From Candidatus Heimdallarchaeota archaeon (GTDB lineage: Archaea; Asgardarchaeota; Heimdallarchaeia; Hodarchaeales; Hodarchaeaceae): DNA of 64,000 bases. The stretch is taken from the NCBI GenBank assembly GCA_020353515.1, contig CP070695.1:473173-537172 (forward strand), in the 5' to 3' direction. The notes below the pieces were generated by a model that saw nothing but the letters and a program-made list of their open reading frames with translations, searched no databases and had not been told where the DNA came from. Shown here piece by piece: positions 1,025 through 34,286 of this stretch (its first letter is position 1; each line of letters begins with the position of its first letter). The translations under genes and the position numbers were made by a program.

Positions 1025-1794
1025 TTATGACTTGTTACTTCCATCAACATTAACTACAACGAACACTGATTTATAATGTAATGTACCATACAGAAGTAAG
1101 AATAATCCTGAAAGGAAAAAAGAAATCATAAGAGGGAATATTGATTTATGAATTTGTATTTCTCCGACTGAAAACATCTGGATCTTTAAAGGTTGAAAAA
1201 TTAGATTAAAAAGGCAAGCTAGTTGAATGAAAAAGAATCCAAAAAAAAAGAATCTAGAAAATCTGTATTTATTATAGTTAGACTGTCTTTGTGTCTTCTT
1301 TAGCATTATATTATTGATTGTTACCGCAAGAACGAAAGAAAAGGTGATTAAAACTAGAAGGAATCCCCCGAATACCGAAAGTATAAGAATTCTTTCAATA
1401 ACATCATATTCTTTCAACGAAAGAATTTCTATTAACGTAAAAGTGCGCCCATGAACAACAATATCAAACCAATACTTGGAATCCTCATGATCTGGTAGAA
1501 AATTCAATATAATTCGAGATACACCTGGAAGGAAAAAAGAATCATTATCTCCTGATAGTGATGCAGGAGGAAGAAAAAAATGTTTTTGTATTCCAAAATC
1601 AAGGATCCAGTGTGTTAATGTAAAATTTAGGGTGCCTGTATTATCGATTGCAGCTGTAATATTTACCTGAAGAAGAATAGGTAAATTGAAGCTGTTCCTC
1701 CTAATTCATGTCCAATTCCACCACCAATGATTATTATAATGGCAACAAGTATCGGAGGGATTACTTTCCAATGTTGAGTCAGTTTTAAAATCAT
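1025..1794 (-). pseudogene. Membrane protein split by a single frameshift (pseudogene or sequence error)
   Basis: ATG at 1794 overlaps the upstream TGA (ATGA) and reads MILKLTQHWKVIPPILVAIIIIIGGG... to TAA at 1663-1665. The frame of the 1025..1507 ORF is open back to 1705 with no start codon, so the shift lies in 1666-1705. Confidence 0.6.
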
Positions 1795-3557: not shown

Positions 3558-5603
3558 CTAATCTAATTCAATGGTTGCCCATACCGCAGGATGATCTGAT
3601 TCTTTACTCACAATAAAATTACATTCAGAAACAGATATTCCAGATGAAACGAATATATGATCTATTCTATGGCTAATGTTATACTCAAGATCATCCAAGA
3701 AATCAGTGTTTGTCTTTCCAGCAAGTAACCATGAGTCATTTAGAGTGATAGTTGTCAAATTATATTGTTCAGTATTTGGTCTGAAATTAAAATCACCTAT
3801 AAGTACCACATTAGGTTTTCCATTCAGTTCGTCCATAATAGCCTCTTGTTGAACAATGGGGCCACCATTACCAAGATGTGTCACAAATATATTAAATGAT
3901 TTTGTACCAGCTTCAATCTGGGCTTTTATCGTTGCTGTCTGCTCTCCCTTACTGTACATGAAAAATGTCCTAGGATTTTGAATTGGATATTTCGAAAGCA
4001 ATGCAATACCAAAAGTACCTGTAACGGTCTTTGGACCATAATAGGAATACATTTTTAGGTTGTTAGCAAAATATCTAACAACGTCCATATTTCCATTGGC
4101 AATCCTGGCGGTATCGCATTCCTGTAATCCAATAATATCAGGATTAATAGATTTAACCAGCTTTAGTTGACCATTAAGGTTTTTGATACCATCTTCATTA
4201 TATCCTTGCTGGATATTATAAGTCATAACCGTTATAGAGTTTGTTGTTTCGGGAGTGGTGGGTATAGGGGTAGTTAAAAAGGCTGCTAAGACAGTTCCAA
4301 TTGTAATCAATATAATTCCTATAGATGTAATTCTGGATCCTAATGTCAATGATGGTTTCCTGAACACTAAATTTCTTTTTGTTATAAATAATGCTGGTAA
4401 CCCAACACTTACTCCTACTATTAAGTACACAAACCAAAACATGTCTCGGAAAAGAGGGCCTACAATATCGATGTAGTCATATACGGTTGTAAATACATGT
4501 GCAAAAATCATTACGACAATAAATAGTGATGCTAGAGTAAAACTACCTGCAAGTTTAACTATTGAAGGCTTACAATTATATAACTCACGAGAAATAAGTG
4601 TAAAGTCAACAAAGAGTATTGGGAAAAAAATTAACATTATTATTAACAGTATCAGATGTATTAGTGTTGTTGGAGGAGTAGTAATTGGATAACTTCCAGC
4701 TGAGGAAGGAAATTGGATTTGATTGAAGAAAATTGTAAGAACTAAGGTAAGGATAAAGACTGCATTCGCAAGCCAAATCATCCAAGGTTGTAATTTAACA
4801 AGTAAATCACGTCTAAATGTCATAAATATAACAAAAAAAGTAAGCATTAAGATTAGTAAAAGGATTATAAAGAAGTAATCTCCTTCAGTCCATCTAGAAA
4901 TGACCGTTGGACTGGCAAATGAATAATAAATCATCATTAATATTCCTATTATTCCAAAAGAGAAGCCTATCATTTTTAAAGAACTAATTGATTCTTTTTG
5001 ACTTGCAGAGCCCTCAAGATCCATTTTCTGTTCTGTTACAAACATACCAAGAATCATGATAGCCATAATTGCTGCGAGAATCCATCCAATTACTTGAAAC
5101 AAGCTGTATGTGGTAATATCAATCGTTGAACCAAGAGTTCTAAAGAGAATTGACATAGCAGCACCGATAGCTAATCCTAATCCGAGATTTACTCCATTTA
5201 GTTCTTCATCACCCATATACTTTTGTTGAAGAAATAGTGGAAAGAATATCAGAAAACAACCGACCCCAATTCCAGATGTAATCATTTTAATTTGTGTGTT
5301 TTGGACTACTAAAGGGGTTAGAATTCTACATACAACCATTAACTCCCCAACAATAACCAGAGCTTTATCAGAATTTCTCTTTTTAAAGAAAAATAATAAT
5401 AATGGAGAAAAGAAGAATAAAATGCTAAGAACATTTTCATTCAGAGACAGAGTTAGGAGACAAAGGGCATAAATTGCCTCTATGAAATCAGAAACCAATT
5501 CCAAGAAGAAGAAAAAGAGGATAGAAACTAATAATAGGTCGGAATAGTATTGTTCTAAGAATTTTTTCAATGAATGGATTGTTGACATAACTTTGGTAGA
5601 CAT
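3558..5603 (-). CDS. Multi-pass membrane protein with C-terminal EEP (endonuclease/exonuclease/phosphatase) domain, Cwh43/PGAP2IP-like
   Basis: About 440-aa hydrophobic N-terminal region; MTYNI, GLQE, THL, GDFN, IDHIF, SDH motifs. Confidence 0.85.
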   Translation of the reverse strand: MSTKVMSTIHSLKKFLEQYYSDLLLVSILFFFFLELVSDFIEAIYALCLLTLSLNENVLSILFFFSPLLLFFFKKRNSDKALVIVGELMVVCRILTPLVVQNTQIKMITSGIGVGCFLIFFPLFLQQKYMGDEELNGVNLGLGLAIGAAMSILFRTLGSTIDITTYSLFQVIGWILAAIMAIMILGMFVTEQKMDLEGSASQKESISSLKMIGFSFGIIGILMMIYYSFASPTVISRWTEGDYFFIILLLILMLTFFVIFMTFRRDLLVKLQPWMIWLANAVFILTLVLTIFFNQIQFPSSAGSYPITTPPTTLIHLILLIIMLIFFPILFVDFTLISRELYNCKPSIVKLAGSFTLASLFIVVMIFAHVFTTVYDYIDIVGPLFRDMFWFVYLIVGVSVGLPALFITKRNLVFRKPSLTLGSRITSIGIILITIGTVLAAFLTTPIPTTPETTNSITVMTYNIQQGYNEDGIKNLNGQLKLVKSINPDIIGLQECDTARIANGNMDVVRYFANNLKMYSYYGPKTVTGTFGIALLSKYPIQNPRTFFMYSKGEQTATIKAQIEAGTKSFNIFVTHLGNGGPIVQQEAIMDELNGKPNVVLIGDFNFRPNTEQYNLTTITLNDSWLLAGKTNTDFLDDLEYNISHRIDHIFVSSGISVSECNFIVSKESDHPAVWATIELD

Positions 5604-5693
5604 CTTTCTGTCTTAAAAAGGTTTTTATGAATAATTATTGGAGATCACAGCCTGTAGAATCATGATTTTTTTGTTTGTGCTTATACCCAAGTT

Positions 5694-6563
5694 TTACTCA
5701 CTGATCCAAGAGATATAATATTCTAAATGCGGAGGAATAGTGATACTAGGCCGTAAAAAATCCCAATCTCCTTTCAATCCTAATTCTTGAGCAGTTAAGT
5801 TGAAGTGACAAATAGCAATTCCTAAATCCACTCGTGGAAAATCAGGCCACGAGAGAAAGCGACTATACCAACTCCTTTTCCGAATAATGAAGAAATGGTA
5901 AGTATGAGTATCATTCTCCTTTATTATTCGCCAAGGCTGACGATTGGACGCTGAAGGGGCAAGTCGAATCATTTCTAAGGGTGTTTCGTATTGATCAGCT
6001 CTCTCTCGAGTAAGTGGATGATCGCAATCAACCTCAAAGAAGAGTGTCTGCCATGGATGACGATTTTTAGATCGAGCAGCCCAACGTGCAACTCTATCCA
6101 CCTTGCTTTGGCTTTTTGCTGCATAACCAACAGGAGTGATGGCTGGGACAACTTCATCATCGGTTATGTTGATTTGCGCTGCAAACCTACTGCGTTTAAG
6201 AGTTCCCCCTACCCAGCAAGTTCCCAAACCCAAATCGGTCGCATATAATACTAGCTCCTCCATGATGTAACCAAAATTTTCTAAATCATGTTCTGATTTC
6301 TTTGTTGCTCCAACCACAAAATTTTGAGCACCTTGGATGAACCCATACGTACCAAGCTGCCTTTTTACTTTAGGATTTAGTTCTGACATTTCTATTAATT
6401 CAAAACGGGTTTCTCCCTCTAAAGGGCTAGTACTGTCTCCTTGGAGAAATTCTTTCAGAAATCTCTTAGTTTTGTTATCAAGTAACTGGATTTCATATTT
6501 TCTACAAGAATAGCGCCGTTGAATGATTTCCACAATGGAAGTGGAAAAAGTCATTCTACTCAT
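5694..6563 (-). CDS. Nitroreductase family protein
   Basis: RRYSCRKY, GLGTCW, APSASNRQPW, DLGIAICHF motifs. Confidence 0.88.
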   Translation of the reverse strand: MSRMTFSTSIVEIIQRRYSCRKYEIQLLDNKTKRFLKEFLQGDSTSPLEGETRFELIEMSELNPKVKRQLGTYGFIQGAQNFVVGATKKSEHDLENFGYIMEELVLYATDLGLGTCWVGGTLKRSRFAAQINITDDEVVPAITPVGYAAKSQSKVDRVARWAARSKNRHPWQTLFFEVDCDHPLTRERADQYETPLEMIRLAPSASNRQPWRIIKENDTHTYHFFIIRKRSWYSRFLSWPDFPRVDLGIAICHFNLTAQELGLKGDWDFLRPSITIPPHLEYYISWISE

Positions 6564-6591
6564 TCCTCAAATCTTCTTGTATTAAGCCCTT

Positions 6592-8532
6592 TCATCCAAG
6601 AACTAGTTCAGTATAAACAGCCCGATGATCAGATACTCTTGGTGACCCAAAAATTGCACAATTAAGAACTGTCCAACTTCCTTTCAACCAAACATAGTCA
6701 ATCCGTTTTACAGCAAATCCAGAATTATTATAGGACGTCCCACTATCAGAAGTATTTCCAGATAATATCCAAGTATCTGAAAAAGTTGAATTAAGAAGCA
6801 CAAATGCTTGATCTGTCACATCTGGACGAGTATTAAAATCACCAAGGATGATAGAATTAGTAAAATCCTCTGTAATATCAAGGATTTTTACAGCCTGATT
6901 ATATCTATCAATTGTATACTTACCTGTTTGAAAATGGGTTACTACAATAGGTAATTCCCCCGCTATCTCACCAGTATCAATTTCTACCACAATCGCTACT
7001 CGTTCGATGGATTGATATGCTGGTAAGTCCTCATAATAAGCAGATAATATTGGAAATCTTGAAAGAAGAGATACTCCGTAAATTTGAGCAGAAGTTGGAG
7101 GCCCATAATAATAATAATTCATCCCAGTCTGATGAGCGAGCCATTGCACACCATTCATACTTGATGATGTAATTCGGGCACCTTCTGATTCTTGTAATCC
7201 AACAACATCTGCTCCAGATTCTAGTATGACATCCCTTACTTGTTCAAGGTTATAAAGACCTGTTTGTCCAATTGAGAAGTACTGATGAATATTGAAAGTC
7301 ATGACCTTAAGTTTACTTGTGTCTGGACTCTTTTGAACCTTAAGAAGATCATTAGTAACCACACCCAACATTGAAATAATGATTGCAGACAGGAAGATAA
7401 TACGTACAGAATTTAATACCTGTTGAGGTTTCTTTTTGAAGTTAAGAGGTATTTCAAATCTTAAGCTAGCTAAGGGGAGAAGTAATCCTGCTACAAATAT
7501 AGTAGTTGCAGCATGCCCACGAGTAAAGGCTAAAATTGAGGGCATAAACGCCCAATTCCCAGCGCTTACGTGTAAGATCAGGATGAATACCATTAAAAAT
7601 TGAAATACAGTCATTCTTAATCCAACAACCCTGGGTGATCTAATCGAGTTCTTACTCAAACCCATGTAAAGGATAACACAAATTGAAACCTGTACAGTAA
7701 AGTAAGTGATAAAGGGCATGAGATTTATCCAGAGAAGATCTATTAAGGAGAAAAGAAACAAGATTACCCACCCGAACTCCAATTTGTTTTGGGTAAGATG
7801 ACCCCCTTTTTCAAAAGTTAATAAACCACCTAGTACAAGACCAAAGATTCCAGTAAATGATATAAGTATGTAATTCCTGAAAAACCATGTAGATACGACA
7901 TTAGGAAAACCTAGGAATAAAATTTGAATAAAGAGGAAACCTATAACTGGAGGCACCCCAGTAAACGTTGATTGTGAAGATTCTATTAATCGAGGATCAT
8001 ATCTGATATTGAAAAACCAGAGTAGAATTCCTAAGCTTATCCAGAAAAGGAATAGAATCGTTCCAATAATGGTAGCATAATAAGAAGCTGTTCCGAGCCA
8101 TGAACGCAAAATAATCTGGAGTACGACTCCTAAGATTATGCTCAAAGAAAACTGTTCTTTCTCAAGTTGAATTCGGTTTACGAGCACCGGAGTAATGAAT
8201 ATCATAGCAAAAATGGCAGCAAGAGTAGCAATTAGTGTGACTGGAATAAAGCTTAATACGACCATAATTGTTGCTCCAAGGATGCAGACTGACAGAGTTC
8301 TCATCGAATGAGGATATGGTAGAATCACTTCCACAAGTCCAGTCAATAGAAAAAGAACTAAAAGAATAGTCACATTTGGTCCTGCAGTAGAAAAGTTTAG
8401 CACAAAGATCATTGTTAAAAAACGTTCTAGCTGTGTGAAGAAAAGAAAAACTATAATTGTTCCAAAAATTAATTGGAAAAGGAAATTTAATAATTCTTGA
8501 GAAAGAATCGGTTTTTTTTCCACGTTTATCAA
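6592..8532 (-). CDS. Multi-pass membrane protein with C-terminal EEP domain (paralog of 3558..5603)
   Basis: Many TM helices; MTFNIH, GLQES, YYGP, LLSRFPI, THF, GDFN, IDYVW, SDH motifs. Confidence 0.85.
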   Translation of the reverse strand: MINVEKKPILSQELLNFLFQLIFGTIIVFLFFTQLERFLTMIFVLNFSTAGPNVTILLVLFLLTGLVEVILPYPHSMRTLSVCILGATIMVVLSFIPVTLIATLAAIFAMIFITPVLVNRIQLEKEQFSLSIILGVVLQIILRSWLGTASYYATIIGTILFLFWISLGILLWFFNIRYDPRLIESSQSTFTGVPPVIGFLFIQILFLGFPNVVSTWFFRNYILISFTGIFGLVLGGLLTFEKGGHLTQNKLEFGWVILFLFSLIDLLWINLMPFITYFTVQVSICVILYMGLSKNSIRSPRVVGLRMTVFQFLMVFILILHVSAGNWAFMPSILAFTRGHAATTIFVAGLLLPLASLRFEIPLNFKKKPQQVLNSVRIIFLSAIIISMLGVVTNDLLKVQKSPDTSKLKVMTFNIHQYFSIGQTGLYNLEQVRDVILESGADVVGLQESEGARITSSSMNGVQWLAHQTGMNYYYYGPPTSAQIYGVSLLSRFPILSAYYEDLPAYQSIERVAIVVEIDTGEIAGELPIVVTHFQTGKYTIDRYNQAVKILDITEDFTNSIILGDFNTRPDVTDQAFVLLNSTFSDTWILSGNTSDSGTSYNNSGFAVKRIDYVWLKGSWTVLNCAIFGSPRVSDHRAVYTELVLG

Positions 8533-9532: not shown

Positions 9533-11263
9533 TTAGTTTTCTTGTTGATAATTACTCCGTAATTGAGTGAACATTGGAACATATAGGATAGGTACCCATC
9601 CTTTCGGAGCAGGACGCCAACGACCGATAACAGCTTTTACTTCTTCTCCTTCAGTGAAATTACAGATCCTGGGATTGTAATTAAATCCTCTAACCATTTT
9701 TTGGTCAAACATTGCCCAGTAAGGATTCTCAGGATGACCAGCTGCTTTCTTTGAGGGATTATAATAATGCACCTGTTTAATTTTAGCTCGTTTCGGGATC
9801 TTTAACACTTGCAATTTCGTTCCGCATATTCTTTTAGCGTCACCAGTTGTGTTCTCAATCCCACGTAAACAACGATCTTCCAATTCGCCAAATTTCTCTG
9901 GAGGAGCAAAATCTGGGAAGTTAGCTTTGGTCCAACTGTCCCCAAAATAGACGGCACCGCATTTTGGGCACCCCTCTACTTGATAATATTCTTTTGATAG
10001 TGGATCTACTTCCAATAAGGCGATATGCCGAGCAGCTTGATCAGGAGTATCACGAAACTTAAAATAATCCTCAACCGTGATTTTCTGTTTGTATTCTATT
10101 TGTTCCTGAACAGTTGGAACGCCATTATTAGCAACTTGTGAACCATCAGCTTTCACTTTAATACTAATGACATCGGAACCAGCACCTGATCCATAAAGAA
10201 CAGTCATAATCTCATCGCCAGGTTCAGCAGTTTCCATCGCATTGCATAAAGCAGTTGGAACAGTCGCAGAATAACCATTGGCAATAACTGGGGCTAAATT
10301 AGATACTTTAACCCTCGGTTCGATACCAAGCATCTTACCGTCGTCATCAAACATCTTTTCAGCTAAGGGGACGCCAAAATGATTACCAATGTCGATTAAA
10401 GCCTCATTAGGAAATGATCCATTTGGAGAGTGAATCACCCAAGTTTTAGTTTGAAGACAGTCAGGACTGATGTCGGAATAATTCACAAGGTGTTTCTTCA
10501 GGGTTGAAAGAATCATTCCACGGAAGGCCAGTGAAGTACCTTGACCCTCATGCTCTGGGAATGCTTCCCCATCTTTTCTAATAAAATCTGAGAAGTCATA
10601 GTTGATTGAGGTTCGTCCTTTTATTTCTGCAATCCCTTTCTCTTTCCCAAGAATGATGCTAGTGGAATAGAAGGAAGCAGAAAACTCTAGGTCATCTCCA
10701 GGAGCCCCTTGACTCGCATCAGTTGCAGTAACCGCAACATAACGACATCTTCCAGAATCAATTAGGGCGGCTGCAATGTCAAGAAATTCACCAAAGGGCT
10801 TACAGGCAAACTCTCCTCGCACACCATATTTCAGATCAGTTAAACCAGCCTTTCCAGCAATAGCTGTACTTGATTTTACAGCATAGGGATAAGATTCTGA
10901 AACAACGAATAACGCATCAATTTCTTCAGGTTTGATTCCAGCACGGCGAATAGCATAACTCAAAGATTGGATCCCTGCAGTCAATGCATCTTCGTTTGGA
11001 CCAGGAACAACCTTTTCTCGAAGCATTAATCGTTGATGGTAAACCCATCTCACACTACTCAAGGCCTTTCCTCGAAAACGATTGACAGTTCTCTTAAGTT
11101 TTCTCAAAGCAACCTTATAATTAAGTGTGGACAAACTATGGTAATTATCCACGAGTTCTTGAATTTCAAGACGATTTTGAGGTATAAAAGACGCTATTGC
11201 CTTAATATCTGCCATATAAATAACCATCGCGTAGGTTTTGTGATGTTTCTTTGGTGTAACCAA
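9533..11263 (-). CDS. mvaS: Archaeal-type HMG-CoA synthase fused to C-terminal Zn-ribbon/OB (DUF35-like) domain
   Basis: ESYPYAVK, EFACK (catalytic Cys), HSPNG, YGSGAGSD; extra C-terminal region with CPKCG. Confidence 0.8.
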   Translation of the reverse strand: MVTPKKHHKTYAMVIYMADIKAIASFIPQNRLEIQELVDNYHSLSTLNYKVALRKLKRTVNRFRGKALSSVRWVYHQRLMLREKVVPGPNEDALTAGIQSLSYAIRRAGIKPEEIDALFVVSESYPYAVKSSTAIAGKAGLTDLKYGVRGEFACKPFGEFLDIAAALIDSGRCRYVAVTATDASQGAPGDDLEFSASFYSTSIILGKEKGIAEIKGRTSINYDFSDFIRKDGEAFPEHEGQGTSLAFRGMILSTLKKHLVNYSDISPDCLQTKTWVIHSPNGSFPNEALIDIGNHFGVPLAEKMFDDDGKMLGIEPRVKVSNLAPVIANGYSATVPTALCNAMETAEPGDEIMTVLYGSGAGSDVISIKVKADGSQVANNGVPTVQEQIEYKQKITVEDYFKFRDTPDQAARHIALLEVDPLSKEYYQVEGCPKCGAVYFGDSWTKANFPDFAPPEKFGELEDRCLRGIENTTGDAKRICGTKLQVLKIPKRAKIKQVHYYNPSKKAAGHPENPYWAMFDQKMVRGFNYNPRICNFTEGEEVKAVIGRWRPAPKGWVPILYVPMFTQLRSNYQQEN

Positions 11264-11680: not shown

Positions 11681-12298
11681 ATGAGGACGATCAAATTGAA
11701 ATCTTTCATCGTATTATATGGGCCACGACTTCCTGAAGCAAGTAATTGCCTGTTAAAGCTCTCACAAAAGCTGGGTGATCTTCCTATCTCTGGAGGGGAA
11801 AGAGCTTATGGAACTCATGATTTTGTGTTTAATTGGATCAAACCACCCCAACCAGAACCATTATTAGAACTAGTACGCAGGATTGATGAGTGTTTAATGG
11901 GATTACCAACGAAATACGCTATCACGACTGAAAGCCACAAAACAAGTCGTGTAACTGTTGAGATCGGTAAACGAGTTATGGCTACTATTTTTTCTCTGAT
12001 CCGGATTCAGGGCCCCAGTATTTCCAAAGCACTAACCGCTATTGAACAGGTTATTCAAGAAGTCGAAACAACAAACACCTTTGATACAGTAAAATCTTCG
12101 ATTCTTATGGGAGAGTATGATTATGCCTTTGAGTGGGATCATTGGCCATCCTTTGAGGAGATCCATGACTTATTATCACGTTTAGATGAAAAAATTGAAC
12201 CAACAGGAGCTTTATACACACTAACGACTAAAAAAGTCTATCGCACAGAAGACCACATTGATGACTATTCTAGTGATAATCTTATGGCATTTCTTTGA
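11681..12298 (+). CDS. Hypothetical protein with two-fold internal repeat
   Basis: YGP..GTHDFVFNW..P..RRIDE..YAITT versus QGP..GEYDYAFEW..P..SRLDE..YTLTT. Confidence 0.75.
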   Translation: MRTIKLKSFIVLYGPRLPEASNCLLKLSQKLGDLPISGGERAYGTHDFVFNWIKPPQPEPLLELVRRIDECLMGLPTKYAITTESHKTSRVTVEIGKRVMATIFSLIRIQGPSISKALTAIEQVIQEVETTNTFDTVKSSILMGEYDYAFEWDHWPSFEEIHDLLSRLDEKIEPTGALYTLTTKKVYRTEDHIDDYSSDNLMAFL

Positions 12299-30805: not shown

Positions 30806-31693
30806 ATGGAGTTTCTCTCTCTATTACAGAAAAAGGAGATTTTACTGTTTGATGGAGCTTTGGGAACCGAACTAATGCTGAGAGGTTTAAAACCTAGAGA
30901 TGTTCCTGATAAATGGAATTTAGATCGTCCAGAGGTTATTAAAGAAGTTTTTGAGCAATACTATAATGCTGGTAGCGATATAGTACAAACTGCGACATTT
31001 AGAGCAAATGGTGTTGCTCTAGAAAAATATGGCATCGAGAACCTGATTGAGGATATAAATAAAAGCTCCGGGGAAATATTAAGAAGCGTATGTCCCCCAG
31101 ACAAATGTGTAATAGGTGATATAGGGCCTTCTGGGGAGTTCCTAGAACCAGTTGGTAAAGCATCGATCAATGACCTAAAAAAAGGCTTTCAAAAACAAGC
31201 TAAAGCACTAGCTCCATTTGTTGATGCTTGGCACCTCGAGACATTTTCTGATATAAGAGAAATGAAAGCAGCAATTCTAGCTGTTCAAATTGAATCGAAT
31301 AAACCAATCATAGCTAGTATGACATACCAAAGGACACCTAAAGGATACTTCACTATAATGGGTAATACTCTTATTGATTGTGTTTCGGAACTTCTTAATT
31401 CAGGAGTCGCTATTATTGGATCAAATTGCACTCTTAGTAGTAATGATTTTTTTGATCTTATGAAAACTATGAGAGCTGTAGCTCCAAAGATTCCTCTTTC
31501 AATTAAACCAAACGCAGGTAACCCAGAACTAGAAAATGGAAAGTCAATCTACAAACAACCGCCAGAAGACTTTGCAAAAGATATTAAAAAAATCCTTGAA
31601 CACGACGGCCAGATAGTAGGAGGCTGTTGTGGCACAGGACCTACTCATATTAAGTTACTTCGAAAAATAATTGATGAACTCCGAGGAGGATAA
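30806..31693 (+). CDS. Homocysteine S-methyltransferase (stand-alone MetH N-terminal domain)
   Basis: DGALGT, DIGPSG, LETF, GSNC, PNAG, GGCCGT zinc site. Confidence 0.92.
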   Translation: MEFLSLLQKKEILLFDGALGTELMLRGLKPRDVPDKWNLDRPEVIKEVFEQYYNAGSDIVQTATFRANGVALEKYGIENLIEDINKSSGEILRSVCPPDKCVIGDIGPSGEFLEPVGKASINDLKKGFQKQAKALAPFVDAWHLETFSDIREMKAAILAVQIESNKPIIASMTYQRTPKGYFTIMGNTLIDCVSELLNSGVAIIGSNCTLSSNDFFDLMKTMRAVAPKIPLSIKPNAGNPELENGKSIYKQPPEDFAKDIKKILEHDGQIVGGCCGTGPTHIKLLRKIIDELRGG

Positions 31694-31699
31694 TGTTTA

Positions 31700-33142
31700 T
31701 TGACCGTAATACGCCCAAAAATTGAATTATTAACAAATGAATACAAAGAAAAGATATATCAAGAAGCAAAAGCCATTCTTCGTACTCAAGGCGTCGAAAT
31801 AGAAAATCCTGAAGCACGAAGTCTATTAAATGAGGAAGGAGTTGAAAATGAGGCAGACAGATACTTCATCCCAGGGGATTTAGTTGACAAGTTACGGGCT
31901 TATGCTCCTTCAGAAATTAAATTATTTGATAGAGAAGGAAAAGAAGTAATAAAACTCTCACAAGACAACATTCATTTTGATCCTGGATCAGCAGCAATTT
32001 TTATCCAGGATTTAAAATCAGGTAATATAAGAGAAGCTTTATCAACAGATTATATCAAGTTCTCAAAGATTGTCGATCATTTACCTAATATTGATGCACA
32101 GTCGACGGCTATAGTTTATTCAGATGTCTCTAGTGATGCACAGGATTGGCATCGATTATATCTTGCTCTTCTTAACTGTTCCAAACCAATTGTTACAGGT
32201 ACTTTTCGAACAGAAAGTTTTGCGATAATGAGAAACCTTTTGGAATTGACTAGAACATCAAGTGATAAGTTAGCAGAAAAACCACTAGCGATCTTTGATG
32301 CCTGTCCAAGTCCTCCACTTATGTGGTCAAACCTCACTACCCAAAGTGTAATTGATGCCTCAATAAGTGGAATCCCTTCTGAGTTTGTTAGCATGCCTCT
32401 TGCTGGATCTACTGCTCCTATTACGTTGATCGGATGTGTTACCCAACATACTGCAGAATGTTTAGCAGGTCTTGTTATTGCTCAATTAGCAAAGCGAAAT
32501 GCACCTGTCATTTGGGGTGGGTCTCCAGCTGTTTTTGACATGAAATATGGGACAACTCCAATGGGAGCTATTGACACAATGATGATTAATATTGCAGATG
32601 TTGAAATGGGAAAGTTCCTCAATCTCCCCACTAATGCTTACATGTCATTATCTGATTCAAAAGTCCCTGACGCTCAAGCTGGTTTTGAGGGAGGTATGGG
32701 TGCTTTATTAGCTGGATTAACTGGAGTAAATATGATAGCTGGACCAGGAATGCTTGATTATGAATCAACTCAGAGTTTTGAAAAATTAGTCATTGATAAT
32801 GAAATTGTAGGGATGGTTAAACGGTTTGTTCAAGGAATTAGTGATTATGGTGAACCTTTCGCCCAATCTATCCTCAAAGATTATGATAGTAATGTTTCAC
32901 TTCTATCTCACCCAACAACTCTGAAGCTCTTTCGAAAAGAGCTCTATCTTCCATTCATTGTTGAAGGGGTTCAAATAATAAATAGAGAAACCCGTGAATT
33001 GTGGAAATTAAGCGGTGAAATGTCCGCACGACAAAGAGCGAAAGAAATCGCCATTAAACTCAGTGAACGATCACCAAAACACTCTATTGATGATTCCCTC
33101 AAAAAAGAGTTAGAAAAAATCGCTGAGAAAAATCTAAATTGA
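31700..33142 (+). CDS. MttB-superfamily methylamine:corrinoid methyltransferase, no pyrrolysine
   Basis: SPPL, AGSTAPITLIG, SDSKVPDAQAGFE, EKLVIDNEI; no in-frame TAG. Confidence 0.88.
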   Translation: MTVIRPKIELLTNEYKEKIYQEAKAILRTQGVEIENPEARSLLNEEGVENEADRYFIPGDLVDKLRAYAPSEIKLFDREGKEVIKLSQDNIHFDPGSAAIFIQDLKSGNIREALSTDYIKFSKIVDHLPNIDAQSTAIVYSDVSSDAQDWHRLYLALLNCSKPIVTGTFRTESFAIMRNLLELTRTSSDKLAEKPLAIFDACPSPPLMWSNLTTQSVIDASISGIPSEFVSMPLAGSTAPITLIGCVTQHTAECLAGLVIAQLAKRNAPVIWGGSPAVFDMKYGTTPMGAIDTMMINIADVEMGKFLNLPTNAYMSLSDSKVPDAQAGFEGGMGALLAGLTGVNMIAGPGMLDYESTQSFEKLVIDNEIVGMVKRFVQGISDYGEPFAQSILKDYDSNVSLLSHPTTLKLFRKELYLPFIVEGVQIINRETRELWKLSGEMSARQRAKEIAIKLSERSPKHSIDDSLKKELEKIAEKNLN

Positions 33143-33203: not shown

Positions 33204-34286
33204 ATGAGTGAAGAAATCATTTACATAGATGTTAAAACTTTGTATAATTTCATGCGAGATGTTTTTATTGGTCTTAAAGTGCCAAAAAAAGATGCTAAAA
33301 TATGTGCTGATGTTCTCATTAGTTCAGATCTACGAGGAATAGAATCACATGGTGTGCAGAGACTAAAAATGTACTATGATCGAATCATTTCTGAGATTCA
33401 AAAACCAATTACGAAATTTGAAATTATCAAGGAGACAGAGACTACTGCTTTGATAGATGCGGGTCATGGTATGGGACACGTCGCCGGTCATCACGCGATG
33501 GAGTTAGCTATTAAAAAAGCTAAGAAATTTGGTACAGGTGCTGTTGCAGTCAGAAATTCGACTCACTATGGTATTGCAGGATATTACGCCTTGATGGCAA
33601 TTCAAGAAGGAATGATTGGCTTAACTTTGACTAACGCTCGGCCTTCTATTGCTCCCACGTTTGGTGTAGATCCAATGCTTGGTACTAATCCTTTAACCAT
33701 TGGATGTCCAACAGATGAAGACTTTCCTTTTCTAATTGATTGCGCTACTTCGATAACACAAAGAGGGAAAATTGAAGTATTGGCAAGAACAGAAACACCA
33801 ACTCCCTCTGGTTGGGTAATAGATACAAATGGAACACTATCAACAGATACAGTTGATATCTTAGACAAATTAATGAAAGGAACTGCAGCATTACTTCCCT
33901 TAGGTGGAGCGGGAGAAACCCTAGGAGGACATAAAGGTTATGGATATGGAACTGCTGTTGAAATTATATCAGCAGCATTAACAGGGGGGCCCTTCATGAA
34001 AGACTTAACACTTGAAAGAGGTTATAAATTAGGTCATTTCTTCCTAGCAATCAACATTGAAAGTTTTCTCCCACTAGAAACATTCAAGAAGATCGCAGGG
34101 AATATTGTGAGGGAGTTAAGAAACTCAAAGAAAGCACCAGGACAATCAAGAATTTATACCGCTGGTGAGAAAGAATACGAGATGGAGACCCAACGACGTA
34201 AAACTGGTATTCCAATCAACTCATCAATTCTAAAAGACCTTTTAGTAATGCGGGAAATGCTAGAATTGTCTGATTACTCATTTTAG
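33204..34286 (+). CDS. Ldh_2 family (malate/L-lactate/ureidoglycolate-type) oxidoreductase
   Basis: GIESHG, NSTHYG, GTNP, GHKGYG. Confidence 0.9.
   Translation: MSEEIIYIDVKTLYNFMRDVFIGLKVPKKDAKICADVLISSDLRGIESHGVQRLKMYYDRIISEIQKPITKFEIIKETETTALIDAGHGMGHVAGHHAMELAIKKAKKFGTGAVAVRNSTHYGIAGYYALMAIQEGMIGLTLTNARPSIAPTFGVDPMLGTNPLTIGCPTDEDFPFLIDCATSITQRGKIEVLARTETPTPSGWVIDTNGTLSTDTVDILDKLMKGTAALLPLGGAGETLGGHKGYGYGTAVEIISAALTGGPFMKDLTLERGYKLGHFFLAINIESFLPLETFKKIAGNIVRELRNSKKAPGQSRIYTAGEKEYEMETQRRKTGIPINSSILKDLLVMREMLELSDYSF

Follow-up and report, generated by a model that had tools for sequence, protein, structure and literature searches.

Two diverged membrane proteins with a putative outward-facing EEP phosphodiesterase domain in an Asgard archaeon, apparent relatives of eukaryotic PGAP2IP/Cwh43

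Pfam represents mammalian PGAP2IP, the product of the gene CWH43, and fungal Cwh43 over the C-terminal two-thirds of its length by two six-helix transmembrane (TM) models, PF23022 (6TM_1st) and PF23021 (6TM_2nd), and a model of an endonuclease/exonuclease/phosphatase (EEP) domain, PF23226. These proteins are enzymes of the endoplasmic reticulum (ER), and the reaction of Cwh43 is the exchange of diacylglycerol for ceramide. To our knowledge, theirs is among the least understood steps in the maturation of glycosylphosphatidylinositol (GPI) anchors, and the chemistry of the EEP domain has never been shown directly. We analysed two genes encoding proteins of comparable layout, P0001 and P0002, which lie in positions 3558-8532 of a 64,000-nucleotide stretch of contig CP070695.1 of a Candidatus Heimdallarchaeota archaeon (hereafter the window). 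From their architecture and conservation it seems fairly probable that both are membrane-integral, outward-facing phosphodiesterases of the PGAP2IP/Cwh43 superfamily, whose substrate at the outer surface would be a phosphodiester linked to a lipid or a glycan.

A published clustering of EEP domains (Chuzel et al., J Biol Chem 2023; PMC10704324) grouped an 'Asgard/Chloroflexus group' with Cwh43p, PGAP2IP and the characterised GlcNAc-6-phosphodiesterases, and a cluster of sphingomyelinases adjoins this assemblage. The Asgard/Chloroflexus group differs in size and domain organisation, and was not assayed there. The eukaryotic PGAP2IP/Cwh43 sequences of that study are UniProt Q91YL7, P25618 and Q9HDZ2. 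The group's pair of taxa is the same as that of the family of P0001, called family 1 below, a likeness at the level of taxa. The tie between an Asgard/Chloroflexota EEP cluster and Cwh43/PGAP2IP has therefore been in print since 2023, and the family is a recognised, uncharacterised one. The family of P0002, called family 2, appears to add to it a diverged subfamily found only in the genus of the window.

The window belongs to a genome of 4.94 Mb assembled as a single contig, closed and 96% complete. The closest homologues of its proteins come from metagenome-assembled genomes (MAGs) labelled Hodarchaeota, Heimdallarchaeota or Promethearchaeota, and the host is therefore an Asgard archaeon of the Heimdall/Hod type. 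This agrees with a first-pass annotation made from the letters alone, which had suspected an Asgard host and had laid out two long paralogues around a nitroreductase. The layout is as described there, to the exact coordinates: three co-directional genes on the minus strand fill 3558-8532 and are read in the order P0002, P0003 (the nitroreductase), P0001, with P0003 lying 28 bp downstream of P0002 and P0001 another 90 bp on. The family 1 gene P0001 (3558..5603) encodes 681 amino acids, in which the open reading frame (ORF), Pfam and AlphaFold2 (AF2) together outline a 12-TM domain with the fold of the major facilitator superfamily (MFS), a linker helix (TM13) and an EEP domain predicted to be extracytoplasmic. 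The family 2 gene P0002 (6592..8532; 646 amino acids) has, from its ORF and Pfam matches, an architecture like that of P0001, strongly diverged. A GTG codon at 8523 offers an alternative start for P0002 that would give 643 amino acids, and the database record P0123 begins 3 codons later than the longer frame.

The EEP domain of P0001 (residues 455-681, 3561..4241) was delimited by Pfam, invariant columns, Foldseek and profile matches to Protein Data Bank (PDB) sequences, and that of P0002 (residues 405-646, 6595..7320) by Pfam, conserved columns, BLASTP and hhalign. Against PF23226 (Exo_endo_phos_PGAP2IP; Pfam cut-off 27) P0001 scored 84.5 bits and P0002 63.6 bits, in alignments spanning only about positions 2-168 of the 239 in the model, and the generic EEP model PF03372 gave 66 and 64.7 bits respectively. 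PF23226 was also matched by all 35 family 1 members that were scanned singly. Both proteins carry the full catalytic set, which is N463, E495, H576, D604/N606, D648 and D670-H671 in P0001 and, in the numbering of P0123 (which begins 3 residues later), N411, E445, H530, D562/N564, D609 and D632-H633 in P0002. These residues are invariant or nearly invariant in the alignments of family 1 and of family 2, and both EEP domains are apparently active. The catalytic pattern N/E/H/D-x-N/D/SDH read by the first-pass annotation is thus borne out in both proteins, and the C-domain motif that it had quoted for Cwh43 and PGAP2IP is found at P0001 residues 492-541.

The two EEP domains are clearly related to each other. 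A BLASTP alignment of P0001 and P0002 does not reach beyond the EEP domain and the final helix before it (32% identity, 5e-30), and hhalign with the EEP domain alone gave a probability of 100%. A Foldseek search with the full-length P0001 model returned EEP structures only, including human neutral sphingomyelinase (8j2f). The family 1 profile reached only five PDB sequences, among them 3teb, 3mpr and 4c1r (Bacteroides/BT mannosyl-6-phosphatase), and a single-sequence phmmer search against the PDB found nothing. No structure of PGAP2IP or Cwh43 appeared in the PDB sequence or fold searches.

Hydropathy analysis gave 13 TM segments for P0001 and 12-13 for P0002, all of them before the EEP domain. 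The AF2 models of P0001 were of good quality, both at full length (pLDDT 86, pTM 0.89) and for the TM region alone (pLDDT 82, pTM 0.87). Because the full-length model registered only its EEP domain in the fold search, the TM-only model was used for the membrane region. With VIA-align, the top 50 matches out of 50 were MFS proteins (Z 13-19, with 320-365 residues aligned over residues 13-412), and the top Foldseek matches were likewise all MFS. The lipid-handling proteins Spns1, MFSD2A, LtaA and EfpA are included among these fold matches. From these searches and hhalign, the 12-helix MFS-fold domain of P0001 was placed at residues 1-412 (4368..5603), and hhalign and hydropathy placed the homologous 12-TM region of P0002 at residues 1-363 (7444..8532).

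The 13th helix of P0001 (residues 421-444, 4272..4343) was recognised by hydropathy and the positive-inside count and is a helix in the AF2 models. It is preceded by a K/R-rich cytoplasmic loop (residues 408-424, 5 K/R), and positive-inside counting places the N terminus in the cytoplasm, with the EEP domain on the outer side. The MFS fold has both of its termini in the cytoplasm, and one extra helix after it therefore leads to the same placement independently of hydropathy. After 12+1 helices, the EEP domain is consequently predicted to be extracytoplasmic, the sidedness that had been expected from the sequence. On the membrane side, 22 of the 27 positions of the P0001 TM region that are invariant in family 1 are in outer loops or in the outer halves of helices, and this outer face is the side that carries the EEP domain. 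The conserved outer loops include D162, R237-W238, Y377 and R386.

The two modules also occur in a split form, in which a 12-TM gene overlaps a separate EEP gene. Genome G131 has a 399-aa 12-TM protein (L004:1375-2574, minus strand), which reaches the cut-off of PF23021 with 27.1 bits, and a 281-aa EEP gene (L004:530-1375, minus strand; PF23226 79 bits) whose start overlaps the stop of the 12-TM gene. This overlapping arrangement argues that the TM and EEP modules function together.

Pfam searches with the TM regions of P0001 and P0002 gave no match even at E<=10, PF23021 and PF23022 included, and the paralogy of the two membrane regions is detectable at the profile level only. When the TM regions alone were compared by hhalign, families 1 and 2 aligned with 96.4% probability (E 1.2e-9) over 351 collinear columns, with motifs coinciding after helices 5, 7 and 11. 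A recent tandem duplication was considered and ruled out, given that the two proteins belong to different deep clades and that the 32% identity is found in the EEP domain only. Judging from the profiles and clades, P0001 and P0002 are ancient paralogues. The duplicated system proposed in the first-pass annotation holds insofar as the two are paralogous over their whole length, but so old a paralogy, in different deep clades, does not amount to a duplicated system.

Direct matches of family 1 to the PGAP2IP membrane models were few and faint: among the 35 members scanned singly, PF23021 (6TM_2nd_PGAP2IP) was matched by two (best 2.3e-4) and PF23022 by one (0.022), and a family 1 fragment, P0144, matches one of these two PGAP2IP TM models directly at 2.8e-4. 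A search with PF23021 across 151 Asgard genomes uncovered a further family, called family 3. Its member P0143 (630 aa; L003:949-2841, plus strand, on contig C285 of G111, a genome of the window's class) exceeds the Pfam gathering score of each of the three PGAP2IP models, with 42 bits for PF23022, 83 for PF23021 and 109 for PF23226. About 10 relatives of P0143 with all three PGAP2IP domains were found in Hodarchaeota, Kariarchaeaceae and Promethearchaeota MAGs, and a word-indexed protein search with family 3 returned 17 proteins, all prokaryotic. Family 3 is rare, with a match above the cut-off in 2 of the 151 Asgard genomes, and it is not in the window genome, which has two PF23226 copies only and no PF23021 match.

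Comparison of the TM profiles by hhalign tied family 1 firmly to family 3 (99.0% probability, E 4.6e-18, 336 columns), and family 2 weakly (54%). A metagenome scan with family 3 returned family 1-type loci only, and metagenome family 1 ORFs matched the TM HMM of family 3 with 22-59 bits. When 1.84 billion representatives were searched with the family 1 TM profile, 481 matched, and the best 150 of the 481 were all strong family 1 members. These results indicate that the homology of families 1 and 2 to PGAP2IP/Cwh43 is real and extends over the whole length, transitively through family 3 and the Pfam models. By Pfam model score, no prokaryotic protein in this analysis comes closer to PGAP2IP than family 3, represented by P0143; families 1 and 2, which lie farther from the PGAP2IP Pfam models, are best described as side branches. 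The kinship with PGAP2IP/Cwh43 put forward in the first-pass annotation therefore stands for the architecture, for PF23226 and, at the profile level and by way of family 3, for the relation of the TM region to the PGAP2IP TM domains; what does not stand is the place of P0001 and P0002 as the closest Asgard relatives, since family 3 is nearer.

Family 1 is large and unevenly spread. It has more than 666 homologues in the protein collection and 261 loci in species-representative genomes, and all locus-level counts given here refer to the best 80 of these 261. These 80 are from Asgard archaea (Heimdall, Hod, Loki-type, Thor, Hermod) or Chloroflexota (Anaerolineae, Chloroflexia), besides single Nitrospiraceae and Bacillota bins. 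Among Asgard archaea the family is patchy, being present in 31 of 151 genomes and in 10 of 52 genera, and the Chloroflexota homologues are about 45% identical over the full length. A quick maximum-likelihood tree was built from prokaryotic sequences, with long branches flagged. The bacterial and the Asgard members of family 1 form two sister clades in this tree (SH-aLRT 91 and 82), which implies one old inter-domain transfer, in either direction. Families 1 and 2 come out as deep clades separate from family 3, among sequences with long branches. Family 2 is much smaller, with only 20 homologues among 5.8 billion clusters, and was found only in the window's genus (4 of the 151 Asgard genomes); in the tree its loose companions are further proteins on long branches, including one of a Dehalococcoidia bacterium.

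Some family 1 homologues are interrupted by stop codons. The homologue at G147:C2:132379-134385 has 2 in-frame TAG, and that at G130:C11:580474-581934 (L007), in a genome of the window's own genus, has 1 TAG and 2 TAA in frame, the longest open frame left in the match being the 341-aa P0144. These may be pseudogenes, or the TAG-only case in G147 may be one of recoding.

Our preferred reading can be put as a sequence of steps. The 12-helix MFS-fold domain would have both termini in the cytoplasm and the 13th helix would carry the chain out, so that the EEP domain would rest against the outward side of the MFS-like domain, the two together making a rigid unit. The EEP site would then cleave, and possibly transfer, a phosphodiester at the outer membrane surface, in a reaction that may be likened to those of sphingomyelinase C, the GlcNAc-6-phosphodiesterases and mannosyl-6-phosphatase. 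Candidate substrates are the polar head group of a membrane lipid, or a phospho-substituent of a lipid-linked or surface glycan. Perhaps the MFS-like domain serves mainly as a scaffold that binds the substrate by its lipid or glycolipid portion and presents it, and the two paralogues probably differ in the substrate that they accept.

Several observations weigh against this reading. Tdp2 and the LINE-1 endonuclease score like sphingomyelinase in the fold search, so that these matches do not discriminate, and EEP domains in general also include nucleases and phosphomonoesterases. The MFS fold is intact and could mean real transport. Gene neighbourhoods are not conserved, so that the context points to no pathway: all-against-all clustering of the ORFs in the 80 loci found no conserved neighbour of family 1, and the commonest, present in 12 loci, is a generic ABC ATPase. 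Five of the seven GPI-marker searches reported below, moreover, scored in no control genome and are weaker negatives.

If the intact fold does transport, the outer EEP domain would hydrolyse a phosphodiester from the environment and the fused MFS domain would import the released sugar or phospho-compound. The substrates could then be phosphocholine- or phosphoethanolamine-decorated or phosphorylated glycans, glycerophosphodiesters or teichoic-acid-like polymers. We regard this main rival as rather unlikely. In its favour, the MFS fold is genuine (Z up to 19), one of the 35 family 1 members scanned matches the Pfam model MFS_1 at 2.9e-4, the characterised relatives act on glycan phosphates, and a patchy accessory distribution over 31 of 151 Asgard genomes, shared with heterotrophic Anaerolineae, fits a nutritional role. 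Several Loki-type loci (L021:955-6609; L017, L019, L037) have co-directional genes for an SDR, an enolase-superfamily dehydratase and an MFS_2 sugar transporter with family 1 last, which is a sugar-acid utilisation context, and a GH20 hexosaminidase gene lies near family 1 in five Heimdall-type loci. These neighbour associations are lineage-specific, however, covering 5-12 of the 80 loci, and are absent from the window. The conservation in the TM region is concentrated at outer loops and outer helix ends and not spread along the helices as a central path would lead one to expect, and the eukaryotic homologues are, as said above, ER enzymes and not importers.

The outward-facing phosphodiesterase that we prefer might also have gone further towards transfer. 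Families 1 and 2 would then be prokaryotic remodelases of lipid head groups or anchors, in which the MFS-like domain extracts or holds an outer-leaflet (glyco)phospholipid while the EEP domain transfers the head group, glycan or protein to another lipid. We think this improbable. If it were true, the two families would be mechanistic forerunners of the exchange carried out by Cwh43, with two paralogues for two lipid classes in an Asgard lineage near the eukaryotic stem.

Less probable still is the specific reading of the first-pass annotation, that of an archaeal GPI-like or inositol-glycolipid remodelase which exchanges the anchor lipid and is ancestral to Cwh43. The whole-length homology, and an architecture and sidedness like those of PGAP2IP/Cwh43-C, are consistent with it, and so is the Asgard host, an Asgard origin of GPI-anchor synthesis in general having been inferred in a 2026 Nature study (PMC12872458). 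PGAP2 and PGAP2IP/CWH43 are not named in the main text of that study, nor were they found in two of its supplementary files. The closed, 96% complete window genome gave no match to GWT1, PIG-M, peptidase C13 (GPI8), PIG-U, Frag1/PGAP2 or PigN, nor to myo-inositol-1-phosphate synthase (MIPS). The C13 and MIPS searches did score in control genomes, which makes these two meaningful negatives. Families 1 and 2 are also farther from the PGAP2IP Pfam models than is family 3, which the window genome lacks. Moreover, the sister clade of family 1, about 45% identical, is bacterial, and bacteria and archaea differ in their core lipids; family 2 was found in one genus only. The substrate in the window organism is probably not GPI or another inositol lipid. 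With a nearer relative of PGAP2IP in family 3, a bacterial sister clade, and GPI markers and MIPS not found, the relevance to the origin of GPI anchoring that had been claimed for this pair finds no support here.

It is very improbable, finally, that the proteins are membrane-anchored extracellular nucleases degrading environmental DNA or RNA: the EEP fold is common to nucleases, and Tdp2, LINE-1 endonuclease and exonuclease III-type models match weakly, but the best Pfam model is of the PGAP2IP type, NCBIfam exonuclease III reaches 26 bits against a cut-off of 99, published clustering puts the lineage with sugar phosphodiesterases and sphingomyelinases (PMC10704324), and a nuclease would have no evident use for a 12-TM scaffold whose outer face is conserved.

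The gene between the two paralogues, P0003 (5694..6563, minus strand, 289 aa), encodes a TM1586-type nitroreductase (PF14512, 133.8 bits). A nitroreductase adjoins family 1 in 7 of the 80 loci, all of them from the closest relatives, and the order family 2, nitroreductase, family 1 is complete in three loci only. On this distribution P0003 is probably not a functional partner but a lineage-specific neighbour. Elsewhere around the pair, the window has housekeeping genes of no related function, namely those for HIT, a DNA methylase, Fpg and a thiolase-like protein.

Several other features of the window were recorded in passing. The ORF at 9533-11263 (minus strand, 576 aa) is highly conserved, with relatives of up to 92% identity, and its sole Pfam match is a faint one to the thiolase-type ACP_syn_III_C (E 0.0017). 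Inspected by eye, the protein resembles archaeal condensing enzymes of the HMG-CoA-synthase-like kind, extended at the C terminus. A 205-aa ORF at 11681-12298 (plus strand) has no Pfam match at E<=0.0001 and also none at E<=0.05, and a 160-aa ORF with hydrophobic segments at 1025-1507 (minus strand) has none at E<=0.0001. Further along, the Rfam pyrrolysine insertion element PYLIS_3 is matched (41.8 bits, 32648-32747) inside a gene for an MttB-family methyltransferase at 31700-33142 (plus strand; PF06253, 228 bits). Pyrrolysine recoding at this site was ruled out: the gene has no in-frame TAG, and it is therefore a non-pyrrolysine MttB homologue. Its neighbours are a homocysteine S-methyltransferase-type gene (30806-31693) and an Ldh_2 dehydrogenase gene (33204-34286).

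Prokaryotic relatives of PGAP2IP/Cwh43 that extend over the whole length and could be produced independently of the other pathway enzymes would offer a tractable route to the mechanism of these enzymes and to the role of their MFS-like scaffold. For the study of eukaryogenesis, the useful result is a negative one. Families 1 and 2 should not count as evidence of archaeal GPI anchoring, because they appear to be side branches, one of them is common to Chloroflexota, and the window genome is without detected GPI machinery. Family 3 would be the better candidate for that question.

How the pair compares with described systems can be set out as follows. Like PGAP2IP and the C-terminal part of Cwh43, P0001 and P0002 have 6+6 TM helices, a linker helix and an EEP domain of about 230 aa within a total of 646-681 aa, with the EEP domain predicted to face the non-cytoplasmic side and PF23226 above the cut-off. 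Unlike them, neither protein has a match to PF23021 or PF23022 (E<=10), the GPI pathway and inositol synthesis were not found in the host, and family 1 has a bacterial sister clade. A further difference from Cwh43 is that no Frag1/PGAP2-like N-terminal domain or gene was found in the window genome.

The MFS transporters, including Spns1, MFSD2A, LtaA and EfpA, share with P0001 the pseudo-symmetric 6+6 fold of 12 helices and a cytoplasmic central loop, which in P0001 corresponds to the low-confidence residues 196-204. They differ in that identity is 6-11%, in that P0001 has a 13th helix and a fused enzyme domain, and in that its conservation lies on the outer face and not along the transport path, a pattern that speaks, though weakly, against their working as classical transporters. 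The GlcNAc-phosphodiesterase group and mannosyl-6-phosphatase 4c1r have an extracytoplasmic EEP domain, as predicted for P0001 and P0002, whereas the characterised enzymes of the GlcNAc-phosphodiesterase group are secreted as soluble proteins of 219-357 aa, each consisting of a single domain and lacking a membrane part. Neutral sphingomyelinase and sphingomyelinase C have the same EEP fold and catalytic set and act at the membrane surface on a lipid phosphodiester, and unlike P0001 and P0002 they are without an MFS-like domain and only about 17% identical. Families 1 and 3 are only about 21% identical in the TM region, but the architecture is the same, the TM regions (99.0%) and EEP domains (100%) are homologous by hhalign, and the two families share motifs in the outer loops, R-W after TM7 and Y-D-Y...F-R-D/E after TM11.

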